Position numbers and translations under genes: made by a program. Shown here piece after piece: positions 39,292-52,828 of a stretch of 64,000 nucleotides of DNA. The notes under the pieces are model-generated. The model saw only the letters and a list, made by a program, of their open reading frames with translations, made no database searches and had not been told where the DNA came from. Each line of letters opens with the position of its first letter. Positions within the stretch are counted from its first letter, which is position 1. Origin of the DNA: Candidatus Kaelpia imicola. Its GTDB lineage: Bacteria; Omnitrophota; Gorgyraeia; Kaelpiales; Kaelpiaceae. The stretch is taken from contig JAVCCL010000004.1 in NCBI GenBank assembly GCA_030765505.1, forward strand, positions 35,933-99,932, in the 5' to 3' direction.

Positions 39292-39336
39292 CCACTCTGT
39301 TCTATATCTTGCAACTTGTTTTTCTTAATTAGCCTT

Positions 39337-39378
39337 CATTGATACATTCATTGATGCATTATTTGATTTCATTATAAT
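39337..39378 (+). promoter_or_regulatory. Three tandem 12-13-bp direct repeats (tcattgatacat / tcattgatgcat / tatttgatttcat) abutting a TATAAT -10
   Basis: Operator-like iterated motif directly upstream of the giant ORF. Confidence 0.4.
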
Positions 39379-39488: not shown

Positions 39489-42400
39489 ATGGTAAATGTG
39501 ATGAGCAAAATAAAGTTTTTCATATTTGGAGTAGTGATTTTATTCTCTATAAATGGAAATATTCTGTCTACTTATCGTTATAATAACGTACGCAGGACTA
39601 AAAGCATAACTGCTGTATCTGAGGAAGGTATCCATTCTATTATTGAAATAATTCTCCAGGCTGTTGATTTTGAAAGTGAAGGTGATATTCTTATTTCTCA
39701 GAAGGGTATCTTCCTAAATGGAAATTGTATATCTCCTTCACCCAACCTTGGTTCTATCGGAGAACAAAGTTTCCAACTTCCCCAACCGTTTAAAGAACTG
39801 GCAATTCGAATAATAGGAGTCTATTCAGGTCTTTCTCAAGGCGAATTGCAGGAGGTTATGAGAAGCTGGAATAAACATTACGCTTTGGCAGCTCTTGGCA
39901 CAGAGGAAGCTGTTCGGACTATTTTCAGGTCAGTACCGTATCTAACAAGCAGTGCTGTATCAACAATTGAACATATAATAAAAAATGACTTTGGTTTTAG
40001 AGATGCAGCAGCATCTCTTTTGAAGCGCCCTGATTTAAATGAAGAAGGGGTAATTGCATTGCGTAAAGCTGTCGAATGTGAAGATTTAGAGCTTGAAACC
40101 CGTGTTTGTGCCATTGCATGTTTAACAAAACTGTTAAACTTAGGAGCTAGAATATCTGCTTTAGATAATTTACGCAGTGAGACAATTCAATGGCTTAATG
40201 ACTGTAAAGAAAAGTATGCGTCTTCGGAGCTGGTGAATTCATTTAAAGTTGCATTGAGCGGTATTTATGCGGTCTCTTTAGAGGAAGGTTTGGATTTAGA
40301 TTGTTTTGGCCCCGGCATAGTAGAATTTAGTTCGGAAAGAGAGCTTAATTTATATGATAAAGGACCTGTGTATGCTGAAAGAATTATTCAAGCTTTAGTT
40401 ACTCAAAAAAAGTATGATTTAATGTTAGAGGTCTTAAAAAATAATAGTAGTTATATAGAAAATAGGATTACTGTATTGGATCCTATTGCATCAGGAATAA
40501 CTGAAATGCCGGATTCAGTTTGCAACCGGATTATAGACTTTATAATTGCAAATGTTTCTGATGTTACAGATAAGAATGCGCTGGTTACTTTATTACATAT
40601 CGCTGCTCCTGATGTAGAAAAGGCGCAAAAGCTTATTCAGTACCTTATTACAAGATATGAAAATTTAGCAGAAGTACCTGTGTTTAGTTTTAATAGCCCT
40701 GAACTATTACAGGCTCTTAAAGAGCTTCTTTACAGCCCCACAATCTCTGCAGTATGGGAAGATGTTACGCATCTAATTAAAGTTATTCCGCATCCGTTTA
40801 CTCCCTATATTACAAGAGAACCTTTTTTTGGCTCAGGAGAAGCTACATCTTCAAACTCTGATACTTTGGTAATGGTTTCAAGAAACTTGGATGATACTTA
40901 TAAAACCCCTCTTATGAGTTATCAAAGGATTATGCTTCATGGGCACAAGAATTATGTTTCTCCTTCTAATATGAATGTAGCAATTGTAGAGGGGGTTTTA
41001 AATTTTTGGTTAACCGGTGATATCGAATGTATAAGAAATCTGCCTCACATAGAAAGTGAAGGAACTATTAAAAATATTATGGATGATAATTTGGATACAT
41101 ATGTTTCTACTCATCAGGAAGTTCTACAGGGACTTTTTCATACGCTTCAAATTGATAATGTCCAGGACTTACAAAAATTCAGTATCGAGGAAATAGCGGC
41201 TGCTTGTACAGAAGGAAAAGTTTTAGAAGAGATAAAACTGTATTTTAAGGTATTGAATAAATATCAGGGCGGGGTGGCTGCTAATGTACGTAAGGATTTA
41301 CAAAGCATAGAAATGCAGGGTTTAGTATGGGATGATTATCCTCCTCAGATACATCAGCTTTTTAATGATTTTATTGCATCCTGGGAATCTGCAGAAGATT
41401 CAGAAAGCCTTATTGCCGCAGCAGATAGACTCCAGCGTCTTATGTTGTCTGTGCAGGAATTTTGTGTTTCTGAAATTGAACCTGCAAAGAATCCTTTTGT
41501 AAAAATAGTAGTTCATAAAGATTTAGAACGGCTGGAGTTCAAAGACCCTAAATTTACTATGTTAAATGTATTGTACTATAAGCTTATTCTAGCTCAAGAA
41601 TCTATATATTCAAAAGTGTGGAATTCATTAGCAAGTCTGGAATCATTAAACAGAGAAGGATTAAGCTCTGCATTGGGATTTTTGAAATCTTTAACGGACA
41701 GCCTTGAAGAGCAGGGGTATATTAATGATTCTGTAATACAGGGTGTCGTGGAGGCAATTACTGAGGATATGCCGTACAGTATGTTGATAGACCATATTAT
41801 GTGGTGCAAACAGAATATTTATAACCCTTTATATAGTATGTTCTTAAAGAATGTTTTACAGATTGACGGTTTGAGTGATGATTATCTGCGGGACAGGGAA
41901 ATAGCAGTTCCTTGCTTAGAATATTTTAGGAAAGTTCTTGGTTATCTTCATGATGGGTTAAGTAATTCTCAGATATTAAAAGCAGAGCTTTTAGGTAATT
42001 TGGCTCCGGAGTTTGTGTTAATTCAGCAAAGCAAATCATTGTCACCGCTGGATATCGGTAATAAAGCATGGTCGTTAAATTATCTGAATCAAAACGGTTT
42101 CCAGGCTCCGGAAGCTGCAGTAATTACTAAAGAAGTTATCATGAATTGGGAAAATATGTCTGAGGTAGAAAGGCATGATATCATAGGTAAAATTGTATTG
42201 GAACTGGAACAGCGTACGGGGAAAGAATTCGGCCGCAATTTGCTTTTTTCTGTGCGAAGTTCTCCGGTTATACCGCATCCAGGGGTGCTTTTGACAATGC
42301 TTGATGTCGGTATGAATGAATCAGTTGTGGAAAATCTTATAGCAGAAATACAGGATGAAAGATTTGCCTGGGAAAATTATCGTGTTGCTGAATATATGTG

Positions 42401-43580
42401 GGCAGTAGAATATTTAGGAATTAAAGACGAAAATTTAAGGCAGGTAATAAATAGGGTAAAAGAAGCGCATGGAGTTGAAACTAAAAAGCAATTAAATGTT
42501 GATGCCATAAAAGAAGTCATCTATGAGTATGGGCAGTTGATAGATCAAGTTAGAGAGGATAGTCTTAGTAGTGGAAGTTTAGAGATAGGAGAGGACCCTA
42601 TGAGCATGAGTTCTTACGAACAGCTGTATCTTGCAGTTGTTCTTGCTGTTAAGTCCTATAATTCAGAAGCTGCTCAGTCGTATCGAAGGAGTGTTGGTAT
42701 TCCTGAGGACAGCGGTATGGGTATTATTATACAGGCTATGAGTTTCGGGAATTATTCTCAATCCTTATCCGGCGCTGGAACAGTGAATGTTACTGCCGAT
42801 GGTGAAATAAGAGGAACTTTTAACGAGTGTTCTTTGGGGGTAGACATAATGTCTGGTCTTTCCCGGGCAGGTATTCCTGTCAGCAATATGGGGACCGGCG
42901 ATGCTTCAACATCGACACTGGAATTTCTTTATCCGGATGTTTATAAAGAACTTTATACCGCATTGTTTGGAGATCCGGATACCGCAAAGGTAGGTATTTT
43001 TGACCTTTTTGGAAGGCAGCCTATACAGTATGAGTTTGTTATTGAACAAAATAAGATTGTTTCTCTTCAGGTTAGGACTTTAGCTGAAGAAGAGATATAT
43101 GATAGGAAACAGCTTAATTATGTAGAAATACCTTCAAGTGTTCCGGCATTAGGCAGAGGTATTTTTATCGGAAACAGGGCTGTAAAGGGTTATGTCATTA
43201 CAATAGATGATTATCTTGATCAGGGCAAACGTGCAGAGTTAATTGCGAAGGTAGATTCTGACCCTGACATTGACGGGCTGATTTTAGCAACAAGTGAGAT
43301 TAAAACTGCAGTCTTAGGGCCAATTTTACAGGATGCTTATATTTTAGGGTTCTTTAGCAACGTAGGGTATGAGGTTTCTCATGGAATTTCTTTGGCAATA
43401 CGTTATCATATATCCGCATTATTAGGTGTCCGGAATTTAAGTCACGATTTTACAACAGATGAATATACTTTTAAAGTAGGGAGTCAGCAAATAGTGCTTA
43501 AATCAGGTGATATAGTTACTATTGATACAGATGGTAAGTTATATCAGGGTGCCTATCCAATATATCCAATCGAGCAATAA
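39489..43580 (+). CDS. Giant membrane-anchored protein with C-terminal PPDK/PEP-synthase-like ATP-grasp plus phosphohistidine (PEP-utilizing mobile) domains
   Basis: 1363 aa; N-terminal hydrophobic anchor. IIIQAMSFGNYSQSLSGAGTVNV...GEIRGTFNECSLGVDIMSG resembles the V.VQ.MVFGN...SGV.FTR.P.TGE...GE.L.NAQGEDVVAG nucleotide-binding block of pyruvate phosphate dikinase. VSHGISLAIRYHISALLGV resembles the TSHAAI.ARE.GIPAVVG swivelling-His domain. Confidence 0.55.
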   Translation: MVNVMSKIKFFIFGVVILFSINGNILSTYRYNNVRRTKSITAVSEEGIHSIIEIILQAVDFESEGDILISQKGIFLNGNCISPSPNLGSIGEQSFQLPQPFKELAIRIIGVYSGLSQGELQEVMRSWNKHYALAALGTEEAVRTIFRSVPYLTSSAVSTIEHIIKNDFGFRDAAASLLKRPDLNEEGVIALRKAVECEDLELETRVCAIACLTKLLNLGARISALDNLRSETIQWLNDCKEKYASSELVNSFKVALSGIYAVSLEEGLDLDCFGPGIVEFSSERELNLYDKGPVYAERIIQALVTQKKYDLMLEVLKNNSSYIENRITVLDPIASGITEMPDSVCNRIIDFIIANVSDVTDKNALVTLLHIAAPDVEKAQKLIQYLITRYENLAEVPVFSFNSPELLQALKELLYSPTISAVWEDVTHLIKVIPHPFTPYITREPFFGSGEATSSNSDTLVMVSRNLDDTYKTPLMSYQRIMLHGHKNYVSPSNMNVAIVEGVLNFWLTGDIECIRNLPHIESEGTIKNIMDDNLDTYVSTHQEVLQGLFHTLQIDNVQDLQKFSIEEIAAACTEGKVLEEIKLYFKVLNKYQGGVAANVRKDLQSIEMQGLVWDDYPPQIHQLFNDFIASWESAEDSESLIAAADRLQRLMLSVQEFCVSEIEPAKNPFVKIVVHKDLERLEFKDPKFTMLNVLYYKLILAQESIYSKVWNSLASLESLNREGLSSALGFLKSLTDSLEEQGYINDSVIQGVVEAITEDMPYSMLIDHIMWCKQNIYNPLYSMFLKNVLQIDGLSDDYLRDREIAVPCLEYFRKVLGYLHDGLSNSQILKAELLGNLAPEFVLIQQSKSLSPLDIGNKAWSLNYLNQNGFQAPEAAVITKEVIMNWENMSEVERHDIIGKIVLELEQRTGKEFGRNLLFSVRSSPVIPHPGVLLTMLDVGMNESVVENLIAEIQDERFAWENYRVAEYMWAVEYLGIKDENLRQVINRVKEAHGVETKKQLNVDAIKEVIYEYGQLIDQVREDSLSSGSLEIGEDPMSMSSYEQLYLAVVLAVKSYNSEAAQSYRRSVGIPEDSGMGIIIQAMSFGNYSQSLSGAGTVNVTADGEIRGTFNECSLGVDIMSGLSRAGIPVSNMGTGDASTSTLEFLYPDVYKELYTALFGDPDTAKVGIFDLFGRQPIQYEFVIEQNKIVSLQVRTLAEEEIYDRKQLNYVEIPSSVPALGRGIFIGNRAVKGYVITIDDYLDQGKRAELIAKVDSDPDIDGLILATSEIKTAVLGPILQDAYILGFFSNVGYEVSHGISLAIRYHISALLGVRNLSHDFTTDEYTFKVGSQQIVLKSGDIVTIDTDGKLYQGAYPIYPIEQ

Positions 43581-43705: not shown

Positions 43706-43734
43706 GAGGCCCTTCAAAGAGGGTTTATTTTTTT
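43706..43734 (+). terminator. pyr leader attenuator (short hairpin plus U-tract ending at the pyrR start codon)
   Basis: gaggccctt-caaa-gagggttt followed by atttttttt, ending 1 nt before the ATG at 43735. Confidence 0.45.
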
Positions 43735-44292: not shown

Positions 44293-45274
44293 GGATATTG
44301 TTGAAAGAGATATCAAGTGGAGTAAGAAGCATCTTCTTGGCATTGAAGATCTAACCGTAGAGGAGATAGGTTATATATTACAGCTTGCCAAATCTTTTAA
44401 GGAGATCTCAACCCGGCAGGTCAAGAAGGTCCCTGCTTTAAGAGGTAAAACAGTTGCTTTTCTATTCTTTGAACCCTCAACAAGAACCAGGATATCTTTT
44501 GAGCTTGCAGCTAAAAGGCTCTCAGCTGATACTGTGAGTTTCTCAGTCTCGACATCCAGTGTACAGAAAGGGGAGAATCTTAAGGATACAGCCCGCAATA
44601 TAGAGGCTATGAATGTTGATATTATAGTCTTAAGGCACCCAGCTTCCGGAGCTGCCCATTATCTCTCCGGGGTTGTATCGGCCGGTGTTATAAATGCCGG
44701 AGATGGGACACATGAACATCCAACTCAGGCTCTGCTTGATGTCTTTACCATCCAGGAGCAGAAAAAAAACATTGCAGGGTTAAGAATTGCTATCTTGGGT
44801 GATGTCTCTCATTCAAGGGTGGCAAGGTCTAATATATTTGCTCTTAAAAAATTAGGTGCTGAGGTTACACTCTGTGCGCCGCCAACAATGATTTTGCCTG
44901 AGTTTAAAGAGCTGGGCGTAGAGGTTTCATATGATCTTAAGGATGTTTTGGCCAAAGCCGATGTTTTAAATATCTTGAGGATACAGAGAGAGCGCATCAA
45001 TGAAAACCTGATTCCTTCAATAGCTGAATACAGAGAGTTTTTCGGTGTAGATAGAGCTAAGCTTTTAAAATATGCAAAGCCGGGATTACTAATTCTTCAT
45101 CCGGGTCCGGTAAATAGAGGAATTGAGCTAAGCCCTGACGTGCTTGACGAGGGATTGCTGGAGAAGAATATCTGCAGCGTTGTTTTAAATCAGGTTACAA
45201 ATGGCCTGGCGATCAGAATGGCGATACTCTATCTTATTGCAGGTATGGGAGGCAGCGTTGAAGTTACTGATTAA
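44282..45274 (+). CDS. pyrB: Aspartate carbamoyltransferase catalytic subunit
   Basis: STRTR motif ([11 protein letters not shown]); HPTQ. Confidence 0.95.
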
Positions 45275-46556
45275 AAATGGTTCGGTTATTGATTTAGAGA
45301 AAAAAGTTTTTAAAAAAAATGATATCTTGGTTCAAAATAAGAGAATCTCTAAGATAGCTAAAAATATAAAAGAGAAGGCGAATTTAGTAGTTGATGCTGG
45401 AGGATGCTATATCTTTCCAGGACTTATTGATATCCATGCTCATCTAAGAGAGCCAGGCCGGGAAGATGAGGAGAATATAGAGTCCGGTTCTCGTGCGGCT
45501 TTAAGAGGGGGTTTTACAACACTCTGCTGCATGCCCAATACAGATCCTGCTATAGATAGTGCCGGTCTGGTAAGATTTTTAAGAGAACGTTCTAAGAGCG
45601 TAGGCCTGGTAGATATTTATCCAGTGGGAGCTATTACAAAAGGAAGGGCTGGCTTGGAACTATCTGAGATGATTAAGATGAGAGAGGCAGGAGCTGTTGG
45701 TTTTTCAGACGATGGCAGCTGGGTTAATAGCCCGCTTCTTATGCGTAGAGCTATGGAGTATTCTGTTCTCTCCGGCTTACCTCTAATTATCCACGCCGAA
45801 GACGAGAGACTCTCTATCGGCGGCCTGATGAATGAAGGTATATTTTCTCTTAAGATGGGACTAAAAGGGTATACCGCGGGAGTCTGAGATAGTAGCCATT
45901 GCAAGAGATATAGAGCTCACTAGGCTAACAGGAGCCAGGATTCACTTTACGCATATAAGCTGTAGGGAATCTGTAGAGCTTATAAGAAAAGCTAAGAAAG
46001 ATAAGTTGATGGTTACTGCGGATGTTACTCCTCACCATCTAACTTTAACTGAAGACTCTGTTAGGGATTATAATACTTTTTCTAAGGTCAATCCCCTATA
46101 AGGACAGAGAAGGATAGGGGAGCTTTAATCAATGGATTAAAAAATAATACTATAGATATAATTGCTACTGACCATGCTCCGCATTCAAGCGAAGAGAAAG
46201 ATTGTAATTTCTCCGAGGCAAGTTTCGGTACTATAGGACTGGAGACAGCATTATCTTTAGGTCTAAAGTTAGTCAACGAAGGTAAGATAGATATCTTTTC
46301 TTTAATAGAGAAGCTTACTTCCAATCCCGCCAGGATATTCTCCTTTAAAGATAGAGGGAATATCTTAGAGAACTATTTGGCTGATATCATAGTAGTAGAT
46401 CCAGATCTAAAGTGGAAGTTTAGTCAGGAAGATATTGAATCTAAAAGTAAGAATTCCCCATTTTTAAATATGGAGTTGAAGGGAAGAGCTAGAACTGTTG
46501 TTTCAAAAGGCAGGGTTTTGGTTGATGACTTTAAATTGATTGGAGATTGTTTATGA
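45258..46556 (+). pseudogene. pyrC: Dihydroorotase, disrupted by two compensating 1-nt frameshifts as given
   Basis: Three collinear DHOase segments: frame 0 to 45887 (...DIHAHLREPG...KGYTAGV*), frame +1 from 45886 (EIVAIARDIELTRLTGARIHFTHIS...), back to frame 0 from 46098 (IRTEKDRGALINGL...DHAPHS...). The second shift lies in a C homopolymer (aatcccctata versus the expected N-P-P-I codons). Confidence 0.6.
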
Positions 46557-46651: not shown

Positions 46652-47107
46652 ATGAAGTTTATACTCAGCCCTGAATTGGGAAGGTTGACCAAGTGGTTAA
46701 GGATTTTAAGTTATGACTCTTATTATTTTAAAGGCAGCAGCAGAGCTCTTATTCTGAAAGCTCTAAAAGAGGATAGAGTTGTTTTAACTTCTATAGTCTC
46801 TTTGGCTGATGAGCTCAAGGCAAAAGTCTTTATAATTAAATCTCAAGATTTAAGAACTCAACTTAAAGAACTTGAAGAGAGTTTTGGTTTAGAAATCGAT
46901 AGCAGTAATATGTTTTCACGCTGTATCAGGTGTAATTTAGAGTTAAAAGAATTAACCAGAGAACAAGCCGAAGAGAAGGTCCCCGTATCTATCTATCAAA
47001 GCAGGGTGAGTTTTTACAAATGTTCTAAATGCAAAAAAATATTCTGGACTGGCAGCCATTGGAAGTTGGCTAAGGAATATTTAGAGAGTATCAATGATAA
47101 TAGCTGA
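46652..47107 (+). CDS. Mut7-C RNase domain protein (PIN-like N-terminus plus Zn-ribbon)
   Basis: LGRLTKWLRILSYD N-terminal motif; C-terminal CIRCN...CSKCKKIFWTGSHW. Confidence 0.6.
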   Translation: MKFILSPELGRLTKWLRILSYDSYYFKGSSRALILKALKEDRVVLTSIVSLADELKAKVFIIKSQDLRTQLKELEESFGLEIDSSNMFSRCIRCNLELKELTREQAEEKVPVSIYQSRVSFYKCSKCKKIFWTGSHWKLAKEYLESINDNS

Positions 47108-48323
47108 TATACATATCCATTCTAAGTATAGCCGTGCAGCAAGCAAAAATATGGATCTGGATAATTTAAGTGAGTTTGCCAAGATTAAAGGAGTAGACCT
47201 CTTAGGTAGCGGCGACTTTACCCATTTCTTATGGCTGCAAGAGTTAAAGACGAAATTAAAAGAAGCTGGCTATGGAGTATATAAATATAAAGGAATTAAC
47301 TATATATTAACCGTTGAAGTGTCAAATATCTATTCTTATAAAGGGAGAGTTAGAAAGATTCATAATCTTATTATTGCGCCTGACTTTACCGCAGTTGATA
47401 AGATAAACAGAGAACTTGCTAAATATGGGAGTTTAACTGCGGATGGCAGGCCTACGCTAAGTTTGGATGTCAGGAGCCTTATGGAGATCGTTCTCTCTGC
47501 TAATAGCGACTGTTTTTTGATACCTTGTCATATCTGGACTCCATGGTTCGGCCTCTTTGGTGCCAATTCGGGTTTTGATTCTATAGAAGAGTGTTTTGGT
47601 CCTTACGTAAAAGATATCTATGCTTTGGAGACCGGTCTCTCAAGTGATCCAGCTATGAATTGGCGGATATCGGATTTAGATAGATATACCCTTGTATCTA
47701 ATTCCGATAGTCATTCTCCTTCAAAGATAGGGCGGGAAGCAAACGTTTTAAATATAAGTATGGATTATAGAGAACTTCTGGAGGCATTGAAAAACAGAGA
47801 CTCCGGAAAATTTGCCTATACAATAGAGTTTTATCCTCAGGAGGGGAAGTATCACTTGGATGGTCATAGAGGTTGCGGGCTTTCGTTTAGCCCTAAAGAG
47901 TCTATGCGTTTGAACAATATATGTCCCAAATGCAGCAAACCATTAACTATTGGGGTGATGCATAGAGTAGAGGAGCTTGCAGACAGGGAGGATGGATTTA
48001 TGCCTAAAGGGGCAGTTGGTTTCAAGAGCTTGGTACCGTTGGATGAGATTATCGCAGAGTTAAAAGGTGTTCAGAAAACAGCCAAGGCGGTAATAGTAGA
48101 ATATCATAGCTTGATTCAAAGCTATGGTCCGGAATTAAAAATATTAAGTGAGCTTGATGAGAAATTTCTAAAGAATAATCTGCCTGTAAAGATAGCCAAA
48201 AGTATTATAGCCGTTAGAGAGGGCAGGGTTAAGATTAAACCGGGTTTTGACGGTCTTTACGGTAATGTCAAAGTCTTTGATGATAAGAAAATGAAGAGCG
48301 AGAAGCAGTTAACCTTTTTTTAA
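47094..48323 (+). CDS. Endonuclease Q-like PHP-domain nuclease (TIGR00375 family)
   Basis: ADIHIHSKYSRAASKNM, GKYHLDGHRGC and Zn-finger CPKCSKPLTIGVMHRVEELAD align with my recollection of archaeal EndoQ motifs. Confidence 0.75.
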   Translation: MIIADIHIHSKYSRAASKNMDLDNLSEFAKIKGVDLLGSGDFTHFLWLQELKTKLKEAGYGVYKYKGINYILTVEVSNIYSYKGRVRKIHNLIIAPDFTAVDKINRELAKYGSLTADGRPTLSLDVRSLMEIVLSANSDCFLIPCHIWTPWFGLFGANSGFDSIEECFGPYVKDIYALETGLSSDPAMNWRISDLDRYTLVSNSDSHSPSKIGREANVLNISMDYRELLEALKNRDSGKFAYTIEFYPQEGKYHLDGHRGCGLSFSPKESMRLNNICPKCSKPLTIGVMHRVEELADREDGFMPKGAVGFKSLVPLDEIIAELKGVQKTAKAVIVEYHSLIQSYGPELKILSELDEKFLKNNLPVKIAKSIIAVREGRVKIKPGFDGLYGNVKVFDDKKMKSEKQLTFF

Positions 48324-52216: not shown

Positions 52217-52828
52217 ATGGAAGTTAGATTAGATGGACTAATTGAAAAGATAAAAAAAGAGGGTGTTCAAGAAGCTAAAAACGAAGCCGGTAAAATTGTA
52301 GCCAAAGCCGAAGAAGAGGCTGTCCGCATCTTGCAAGAAGCAAAGTCTAAATCCGAGGTTGTTATTCAAGATTCAAAATCTCAGTCTGATAAATATAAAG
52401 ATGCAGCTAAAATCGCAATAGAACAAGCAGCGAGAGATTCAATTATAAGCTTAAGAGAGAAGATAGTAGCTGTATTTGACGATCTCTTAAAGAGAGATGT
52501 TTCAAATTCCCTTAGTCCTCAGGCAGTTAAGGATATGATTACCCGGATTTTATCTAATTGGAAGCCGGGGAAAGATGACTCTATTGAGATTTTAACTTCA
52601 AAAAGAGATAGGGACTCTTTAAGAGATTTGCTGATTGATGAATTTAAGGAGAAAATAGCAGCTGGTTTTGAGGTTAAGATTCACCCGGGGTTAAAGAAGG
52701 GTTTTAGAATCGGGATAAGAGGCGAAGATATGCATTATGATTTTTCAGATCAGGGTATAGCTGATACTATTGCTCTCTTTCTCAATGAAGAGATAAGAGA
52801 GATAGTGAATAAAAGTTTAAATGGATAG
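52217..52828 (+). CDS. atpE: V-type ATPase subunit E
   Basis: Long charged coiled-coil N-terminus; position at the head of the V-ATPase operon. Confidence 0.7.
   Translation: MEVRLDGLIEKIKKEGVQEAKNEAGKIVAKAEEEAVRILQEAKSKSEVVIQDSKSQSDKYKDAAKIAIEQAARDSIISLREKIVAVFDDLLKRDVSNSLSPQAVKDMITRILSNWKPGKDDSIEILTSKRDRDSLRDLLIDEFKEKIAAGFEVKIHPGLKKGFRIGIRGEDMHYDFSDQGIADTIALFLNEEIREIVNKSLNG

Follow-up and report, generated by a model that had tools for sequence, protein, structure and literature searches.

Does the giant protein encoded at positions 39,489 to 43,580 of a 64,000-nucleotide stretch of the Candidatus Kaelpia imicola genome contain a working dikinase, and if so, to what could it pass a phosphoryl group? 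The stretch (contig JAVCCL010000004.1; hereafter the window, with all positions counted from its first letter) belongs to a metagenome-assembled genome (MAG) of the Omnitrophota from Ace Lake, Antarctica (PMC8542988). An earlier note on this DNA, made from its letters and translated open reading frames (ORFs), had described the product as a membrane-anchored protein of 1363 residues and unusual architecture, ending in a nucleotide-binding and phosphohistidine module like that of pyruvate phosphate dikinase (PPDK) or PEP synthase (PEPS). We find that the C-terminus is a PPDK-type ATP-grasp plus phosphohistidine module without a TIM barrel, and this domain identity is certain. The architecture is real and uncharacterised, yet it is not unique, as a family of proteins of about 1400 amino acids (aa), hereafter the family, has it as well. 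With slightly better than even confidence, we read the window protein as an active, membrane-tethered, cytoplasm-facing, His-autophosphorylating PPDK-derived enzyme or regulator of the dikinase type. Our data show which domains are present and in what order, that the key Lys, Arg, Glu, Gln and His residues are conserved, that the TIM barrel is missing and that the protein is collinear with the family. That the protein is catalytic, where its phosphoryl group goes, what the N-terminal region does and that a membrane tether leaves the body in the cytoplasm are the parts of this reading that we infer.

The C-terminus is a PPDK-type module without a TIM barrel

The module comprises about 510 residues (~846-1360, with its start at residue 846-856), in which an ATP-grasp domain is followed directly by the phosphohistidine domain. 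The earlier note had recognised the domains themselves but had placed them in the last ~300 residues behind ~1000 residues of unassigned sequence; the unassigned N-terminal part is in fact ~820 residues long. The Pfam model PPDK_N (PF01326) matched residues 899-1097 (E 5e-9), and the NCBIfam PPDK model TIGR01828 aligned its positions 18-335 of 865 with residues 856-1197 (E 6e-37). NF004531, an NCBIfam model of 534 positions for short 'PPDK' proteins, matched residues 843-1158 (E 1e-32) at a score far under its cutoff. By sequence, the best solved relative was C. symbiosum PPDK (1dik), whose residues 19-292 aligned with residues 856-1132 (E 1e-18).

Structural comparison gave the same answer. 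An AlphaFold2 model of residues 840-1363, built from an 18-sequence alignment (pLDDT 75.6, pTM 0.77), was matched by Foldseek to the nucleotide-binding and central His domains of PPDK 1kbl with a TM-score of 0.73 and an E-value of 5e-28. The matches of the same model to PEPS (E 8e-8), rifampin phosphotransferase (RPH; E 9e-7) and HpeI (E 8e-5) were much weaker, so the likeness to PPDK, PEPS and RPH claimed earlier holds for PPDK and far less for the other two. The Pfam family of the mobile His domain, PEP-utilizers (PF00391), matched residues 1264-1347 under its curated cutoff (E 0.034). Despite this sub-threshold score the identity of the His domain is supported, because the hidden Markov model (HMM) of the family spans residues 854-1359 as a single domain and Foldseek aligned the model to the isolated PPDK phosphoryl-carrier domain 2fm4 (E 4e-5, TMt 0.67). 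The assignment of the C-terminus to PEP-utilising-type ATP-grasp and phosphohistidine domains is thus borne out by Pfam, TIGR01828, the PDB and Foldseek, and the catalytic His, the P-loop-like ATP-grasp Lys and the Arg that such domains carry are present.

Could the protein then be a genuine PPDK or PEPS of central carbon metabolism? The E-value of TIGR01828 could be taken that way, as could the generic source-database names of the family members, some of which read 'pyruvate, phosphate dikinase'. Yet TIGR01828 scored 127 bits against a curated equivalog cutoff of 843.45 bits, which is not reached, and covered only positions 18-335 of its 865. No match to the PEP/pyruvate TIM barrel (PF02896, PEP-utilizers_C) was returned by Pfam, and the protein stops 65 residues past the catalytic His. 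We regard this explanation as hardly credible, and the domain content, with the TIM barrel absent, excludes it.

The layout also differs from that of dikinases acting on small molecules. RPH and HpeHI resemble the window protein in having a C-terminal swivelling His domain and an acceptor site other than a TIM barrel, and they use dikinase chemistry that turns ATP into AMP and Pi (PMC4844700; PMC12167813). RPH combines a PEPS-like ATP-grasp domain with a RIF-binding domain of ~430 aa between the ATP-grasp and His domains; at that place the window protein has ~38 residues (Arg1196 to Gly1234), and its extra mass lies, unlike that of RPH, N-terminal to the ATP-grasp domain. The short spacing is as in the family and ~35 residues shorter than in true PPDKs; the underlying deletion (alignment columns ~1281-1345) is common to the window protein and three family proteins, P0002-P0004, relative to 14 PPDKs. 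An antibiotic-modifying, RPH-like role had been proposed earlier, and more broadly one may imagine a phosphotransferase akin to RPH or to the flavonoid or phenol dikinases, which would inactivate or activate an antibiotic or aromatic compound held in its N-terminal region. RPH and HpeI do appear in the Foldseek results at E 1e-6 to 1e-4, but the RPH structures (E 1e-6 to 5e-4) reach TM-scores of only 0.15-0.29 and the module is far nearer PPDK (E 5e-28) than PEPS, RPH or HpeI. Moreover, there is no RIF-binding-type or other substrate-binding domain between the ATP-grasp and His domains, nothing in the N-terminal region resembles the RIF-binding domain or a family in Pfam or the PDB, and a resistance or catabolic gene context is absent. 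The proposal of an antibiotic-modifying enzyme therefore finds no specific support; we rejected an RPH-like resistance enzyme for its wrong domain layout and weak similarity, and we consider a small-molecule phosphotransferase of any of these kinds very improbable.

The best-documented catalytic residues are retained

Residue conservation was read from an alignment of 18 sequences, namely the window protein, P0002-P0004 and the 14 PPDKs. The invariant columns that the window protein keeps are Lys859, Arg923, Arg965, Asp1119, Glu1182, Gln1194, Arg1196, Ser1297 and His1298, equivalent to Lys22, Arg92, Arg134, Asp280, Glu323, Gln335, Arg337 and Ser454-His455 of PPDK (codons 42063-42065 for Lys859, 42255-42257 for Arg923 and 43380-43382 for His1298). 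Also kept are the Gly-x-Lys at Lys859, the Q..M.FGN block and the Phe that follows Glu1182. The dyad Ser1297-His1298 sits in GYEVSHGISLAIR, the PPDK counterpart of which is GGMTSHAAVVAR; both S and H are invariant in 18/18 sequences, and of the PPDK TSH motif the Thr is changed to Val1296 while S-H is retained. All motifs quoted in support of the original assignment are present, at residues 1079-1088 (IIIQAMSFGN), 1094-1101 (SGAGTVNV), 1117-1123 (GVDIMSG), 1234-1242 (GYVITIDDY) and 1296-1314 (VSHGISLAIRYHISALLGV).

The same architecture occurs in a family of about 1400 residues

The architecture is non-standard for any characterised enzyme, and to this extent the description of it as unusual was right; it is not a one-off, since a collinear family is present in at least 333 species genomes. 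These were found in a scan that took a single genome for each GTDB species and used the N-terminal motif region specific to the family, and they belong chiefly to Thermodesulfovibrionales/Nitrospirota and to Desulfobacterota, the isolate Thermosulfurimonas dismutans S95 (WP_068671754.1) being among the carriers. Complete ORFs in the retrieved loci are uniformly ~1385-1450 aa long and share one layout, with a helical N-terminus of ~890 aa, a PPDK ATP-grasp domain, a short linker and a C-terminal His domain, again without the TIM barrel. No papers on this family or on its GAPDH gene pair (see below) were found in the searchable literature.

Several comparisons connect the window protein to this family. 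P0002 (1387 aa), the only database relative of full-length type, aligned by BLASTP with residues 487-1356 at 25% identity. The C-terminal module on its own matched P0003 and P0004 best, both of them family fragments truncated at the N-terminus. With hhalign, a profile of 24 members gave one collinear alignment of family columns 447-1402 with residues 402-1361 (873 columns, 27% identity, probability 99.95%, E 1e-38). When the C-terminal module was removed, the alignment shrank to residues 402-679 (probability 83%, E 9e-6), and residues 1-401 could not be aligned. The C-terminal module scored 180.9 bits as a single domain with the family HMM, compared with 128.3 bits, split, with the PPDK HMM. 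In a neighbour-joining tree of C-terminal modules, the window protein formed a very long branch at the midpoint root, a placement that is uninformative; the family assignment of the module therefore rests on the HMM scores and the common linker deletion. Because these two agree with the collinear profile alignment, we take the window protein as a relative of the family and, judged from its sequence, it is a very divergent, lineage-specific offshoot. It resembles the family in length (1363 aa versus 1385-1450 aa), domain order, short linker and lack of a TIM barrel. It differs in its low identity (25-27%), in its first ~400 residues, which are unalignable, and in the loss of 68 of the 91 invariant N-terminal positions. 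The genomic settings differ too: in Nitrospirota and Desulfobacterota the family gene has gap/pgk/tpi or glycogen genes as neighbours, which the Omnitrophota protein is without.

GAPDH genes flank the family gene on the same strand in 69/80 loci; a canonical gap (334-335 aa) lies immediately upstream in 26/80, and a long GAPDH paralogue (412-441 aa), which scores 322-340 bits on TIGR01534 (type I GAPDH), slightly under the cutoff, lies immediately downstream in 49/80. Many Desulfobacterota show the order gap, family gene, (long gap), pgk, tpi, secG (for example loci L049, L061 and L076). Upstream of the family gene, the Nitrospirota carry an alpha-glucan phosphorylase gene and a divergent radical-SAM gene (in L001, for example, glgP and radical-SAM genes precede the family gene and the long gap follows it), and the second gene upstream in Desulfobulbaceae is glycogen-synthase-like. 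This embedding of the family gene in the lower-glycolysis operon with its GAPDH genes is conserved across two phyla, and the gene pair is uncharacterised.

The family thus has a likely tie to lower glycolysis, which cannot simply be carried over to the window protein, because the N-terminal motifs and the gap synteny are lost there. One may go further and propose that the helical N-terminal region of the window protein and the family is a new acceptor- or partner-binding domain defining a new class of PPDK-derived dikinases or His kinases, in which the Nitrospirota and Desulfobacterota members, in view of their dedicated long GAPDH paralogue and their place within gap-pgk-tpi, would act on or with the triose-phosphate part of glycolysis and the Kaelpia copy would be re-tooled, membrane-tethered and directed to another target. 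We offer this only tentatively and hold it to be unlikely as a whole.

The N-terminal region and its hydrophobic segment

Neither Pfam nor NCBIfam recognised a domain in residues 1-845, and the sequence has no internal repeats; PDB searches were likewise without a match, in agreement with the earlier statement that the region has no recognisable domain. For the N-terminal 854 residues, a word-index search of a 5.8-billion-cluster database returned only the window protein itself, and an exhaustive phmmer search of 1.84 billion representative proteins also returned only the query and no family member. A homology of this part with the family is suggested by the hhalign alignment of residues 402-679. 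The family N-terminal profile gave nothing below E 0.3 against the PDB and only scattered sub-threshold HEAT matches against Pfam. Residues 28-845 are probably a HEAT/ARM-like solenoid, and they form the putative acceptor- or partner-binding part of the protein.

At the very N-terminus, the anchor proposed earlier corresponds to one strongly hydrophobic segment (residues 8-27), predicted to be either a signal-anchor or a signal peptide. The Kyte-Doolittle maximum of the protein is found here (1.96), all other segments scoring at most 1.6. An in-frame stop lies 6 nt 5' of the ORF start. Translation could otherwise begin only at codon 4, 5 or 16, and each of these choices retains the hydrophobic segment at least partly; the NCBI record MDP8215865.1 ('PEP/pyruvate-binding domain-containing protein [Candidatus Kaelpia imicola]'), to which the ORF product is 100% identical, is annotated from Met5 (39501) and has 1359 aa. 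The flanking charges are +2 before the segment (K7, K9) and +4 after it (R30, R35, R36, K38). This balance fits a membrane tether in N-out/C-in orientation, which would keep the ATP-using body in the cytoplasm.

If the segment were instead a cleavable Sec signal peptide, the protein might be an exported or surface-exposed kinase or effector, acting for example on a host or prey cell of a possibly host-dependent Omnitrophota lineage. Its start does look like a signal peptide, with MSKIK, a 12-residue hydrophobic core and a polar NGNILS stretch, and the segment is lineage-specific, being found in none of the 64 family homologues examined. Export would, however, deprive the ATP-grasp/phosphohistidine mechanism of the ATP that it requires and that is unavailable in the periplasm or medium; by the positive-inside rule the excess of charge after the core favours a cytoplasmic body, and the genes nearby (mdh, lpd, nadE, pyr) include no secretion-system or effector genes. 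We thus think export improbable, and the surface-exposed scaffold that had been envisaged appears unlikely for an ATP-dependent module.

A proposed mechanism and the evidence for and against it

In the mechanism that we propose for a cytoplasmic, membrane-tethered enzyme, Mg-ATP would bind in the ATP-grasp cleft formed with Lys859, Arg923, Glu1182, Gln1194 and Arg1196. His1298 of the mobile domain would attack the beta-phosphate to give a pyrophosphoryl-His and then a phospho-His, with AMP released and the gamma-phosphate passed to water or Pi. Swinging off on its short linker, the His domain would then deliver the phosphoryl group to an acceptor, either a bound partner protein or a metabolite, held by the ~820-aa helical N-terminal region.

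The closest precedent is VadK (Rv1127c), a truncated PPDK of M. tuberculosis that, like the window protein, has a PPDK-derived ATP-grasp and phosphohistidine module, has lost the PEP/pyruvate domain and conserves the catalytic His and the ATP-site Arg (PMC13400623). In the presence of Mg-ATP, VadK phosphorylates itself on His, and it has metabolic enzymes as interaction partners (PMC13400623). By this precedent, a TIM-barrel-less PPDK may keep autophosphorylation and act through metabolic enzyme partners, and phosphorylation of a protein partner, one of the options raised earlier, would be viable on the analogy with VadK (PMC13400623). The two proteins differ in that VadK has ~490 aa and neither N-terminal extension nor membrane segment, whereas the window protein has ~845 additional N-terminal residues. 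Elsewhere the same module serves other acceptor domains, in RPH, HpeHI and plant and algal glucan, water dikinase (GWD) (PMC4844700; PMC12167813; PMC13553574). GWD offers a parallel in scale, with ~1400 aa of which ~1000 non-catalytic N-terminal residues position a polymeric substrate for the His domain (PMC13553574), and some bacterial family members lie near glycogen phosphorylase or synthase genes. It differs in having CBM45 modules and a His domain that precedes the ATP domain; the window protein has the order ATP-grasp then His, and Pfam and family N-terminal profile searches detected no carbohydrate-binding module. The closest solved structure for residues 856-1360 remains that of PPDK (EC 2.7.9.1; C. 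symbiosum 1KBL/1DIK), which has the same order of ATP-grasp and swivelling His domains; relative to it the window protein lacks the TIM barrel and carries the large N-terminal addition and, as detailed below, several substitutions. A promoter-like site of its own upstream of the gene also counts in favour of a functional product.

A number of findings weigh against an active enzyme of this kind. Among positions at which at least 90% of the aligned sequences agree, PGMMDT has become PGVLLT, YRR has become YRV, WGTAV has become SGMGI, GED has become GVD, QD/E-x-EF has become IQYEF and GG-x-TSH has become GYEVSH. In PPDK numbering, Met102/103 are replaced by Val/Leu, Arg135 by Val966, Glu279 by Val1118, Asp321 by Gln1180 and Thr453 by Val; the roles of Arg135, Glu279 and Asp321 in PPDK are presumed from their conservation in the alignment. 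Family-invariant positions are kept at 23/91 in the N-terminal part and at 55/107 in the C-terminal part. The family N-terminal motifs DTDLFQKDI, LRKQSHVESS and KRHIAADIPSMYGRYHERKFDA (KRH..IPSMYG.Y.E.KFDA) are not conserved, and what is left of them are fragments such as K672, K688-F689 and W507. The model of the module is weak at the His loop (pLDDT <50 at module residues 416-446 and 454-457), and prediction of the N-terminal region from a 4-row alignment reached a pLDDT of only 43. No orthologue from which purifying selection could be measured was found in any collection searched, 15 billion proteins among them. No tblastn match to GAPDH, PGK, TPI, GlgP or glycogen synthase was obtained anywhere in the 64-kb window. 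Lastly, a cleavable signal peptide, if there were one, would mean export and make the ATP-dependent mechanism problematic.

Much of this could also be explained by a degenerate pseudo-enzyme or pure scaffold, that is, a decayed or neofunctionalised copy of the family that transfers no phosphate and serves as a membrane-associated binding platform. The changes at near-invariant positions (Val for Glu279, Arg135 and Thr453, Gln for Asp321, and Tyr for the Gly before the SH dyad), the retention of only 25% of the N-terminal and 51% of the C-terminal family-invariant positions, the very long branch in the distance tree, the loss of the conserved gap-operon context and the status of the protein as a singleton among 15 billion proteins all speak for it. 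What speaks against it is that the best-documented essential residues, the equivalents of Lys22, Arg92, Glu323, Gln335, Arg337 and His455, are all kept. In RPH and VadK, the equivalents of Lys22, the Arg and the catalytic His are essential by experiment (PMC4844700; PMC13400623), and RPH tolerates a Glu-to-Ala exchange at the Mg-ligand position (PMC4844700). Furthermore, that a frame of 1363 codons has stayed open despite the AT-rich genome is an argument for selection acting on the entire protein. We consider a pseudo-enzyme unlikely, though a more serious contender than export or small-molecule transfer, and we retain the active, tethered dikinase-type protein as the preferred reading.

Acceptors of PPDK-type modules and the interest of the family

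The acceptors served by modules of this type are pyruvate, rifampin, phenols, flavonoids and starch and, in VadK, probably proteins. PPDK-type ATP-grasp and swivelling-His modules recur in nature with differing acceptor domains, and each newly found acceptor domain has exposed new biology. The present locus pointed to a large family whose members join the module to a helical region of ~890 aa and are encoded inside a gap-pgk-tpi operon beside a dedicated long GAPDH paralogue. Should these proteins be active, sulfate reducers and Nitrospirota would have an unrecognised reaction or point of control in their central carbon metabolism. As a divergent singleton, the Kaelpia protein is the least informative member, and its value lies in showing how far the scaffold can drift and in having pointed to the family. 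The family-level finding, a dikinase-like giant in a gap operon with a GAPDH paralogue of its own, outranks it in interest.

Gene integrity, control elements and genomic context

The features of the gene and its protein are collected in Table 1. The gene looks like a maintained native one, because its 4.1-kb frame is unbroken at ~36% GC and its composition equals that of its neighbours; both GC content and GC skew are the same as in the flanks, and the surrounding region has ~36-40% GC. Recent horizontal transfer was rejected on the same ground, the composition agreeing with the flanks. Close relatives were looked for in JGI metagenome contigs as well, and none were present there.

Table 1 Features of the window protein gene, by position in the window
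Feature	Position	Strand	Residues	Basis or remark
Candidate upstream control region	39335..39378	+		consensus matches only
Whole ORF	39489..43580	+	1-1363	1363 codons plus stop, one uninterrupted frame
Hydrophobic segment, predicted signal-anchor or signal peptide	39510..39569	+	8-27	IKFFIFGVVILFSINGNILS; Kyte-Doolittle
Helical N-terminal region, no assignable domain	39570..42023	+	28-845	~820 aa
Part collinear with the ~1400-aa family	40692..42023	+	402-845	hhalign, BLASTP
PPDK-type ATP-grasp nucleotide-binding domain	42024..43091	+	846-1201	Pfam, NCBIfam, PDB, Foldseek, family HMM
Start of linker between ATP-grasp and His domains	43092..43130	+		alignment of 18 sequences
Swivelling phosphohistidine carrier domain	43131..43568	+	1215-1360	alignment, Foldseek, family HMM
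Terminator-like hairpin followed by T-run	43707..43726	+		127 nt past the stop codon

Malate dehydrogenase (mdh), dihydrolipoyl dehydrogenase (lpd) and NAD+ synthase (nadE) are encoded upstream of the gene and pyrR-pyrB-pyrC downstream, with further housekeeping genes around them (prfA, murA, trmD, rplS, fhs, folD, pyrKDFE and V-type ATPase genes). A mobile-element or defence-island setting was rejected, the neighbours being housekeeping genes.

The spacer 5' of the gene measures 197 nt. It holds a sigma-70-like promoter match at 39351-39378 (TTGATG, a 16-nt spacer and TATAAT), the best of the promoter-like matches, whose -35 element is overlapped by a 12-nt tandem direct repeat, TTCATTGATACA/TTCATTGATGCA (39335-39358); beside this pair there is one 14-nt repeat pair. 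These two pairs are the operator-like repeats mentioned in the earlier note; the specialised system that they were thought to indicate finds no echo in the housekeeping surroundings. The 12-nt tandem repeat is a possible candidate operator, although two short copies may be due to chance.

On the other side of the gene, the hairpin could possibly be either its terminator or an attenuator of the pyr operon. It falls inside the first codons of the mechanically called pyrR ORF (start 43696); PyrR homology begins only at residues 19-24 of that ORF, and the true pyrR start is probably downstream. An Rfam scan of the whole window returned three tRNAs only; near the gene it detected neither a riboswitch nor a PyrR element.

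Some further observations concern the remainder of the window. The pyrC gene (45201-46556) seems interrupted, with a 228-aa N-terminal ORF at 45201-45887 and a 59-aa ORF resembling the C-terminus at 46377-46556; no + strand ORF of at least 100 aa lies between these pieces, and a frameshift, a pseudogene or a MAG assembly error may be the cause. Two ORFs amid the housekeeping genes, at 47094-48323 (409 aa) and 52217-52828 (203 aa), gave no Pfam match at E 1e-5. All gene-like ORFs of at least 100 aa between positions 1 and 64000 lie on the + strand, and the GC skew is positive throughout (0.14-0.36); co-orientation with the presumed leading strand is unusually strict over these 64 kb.

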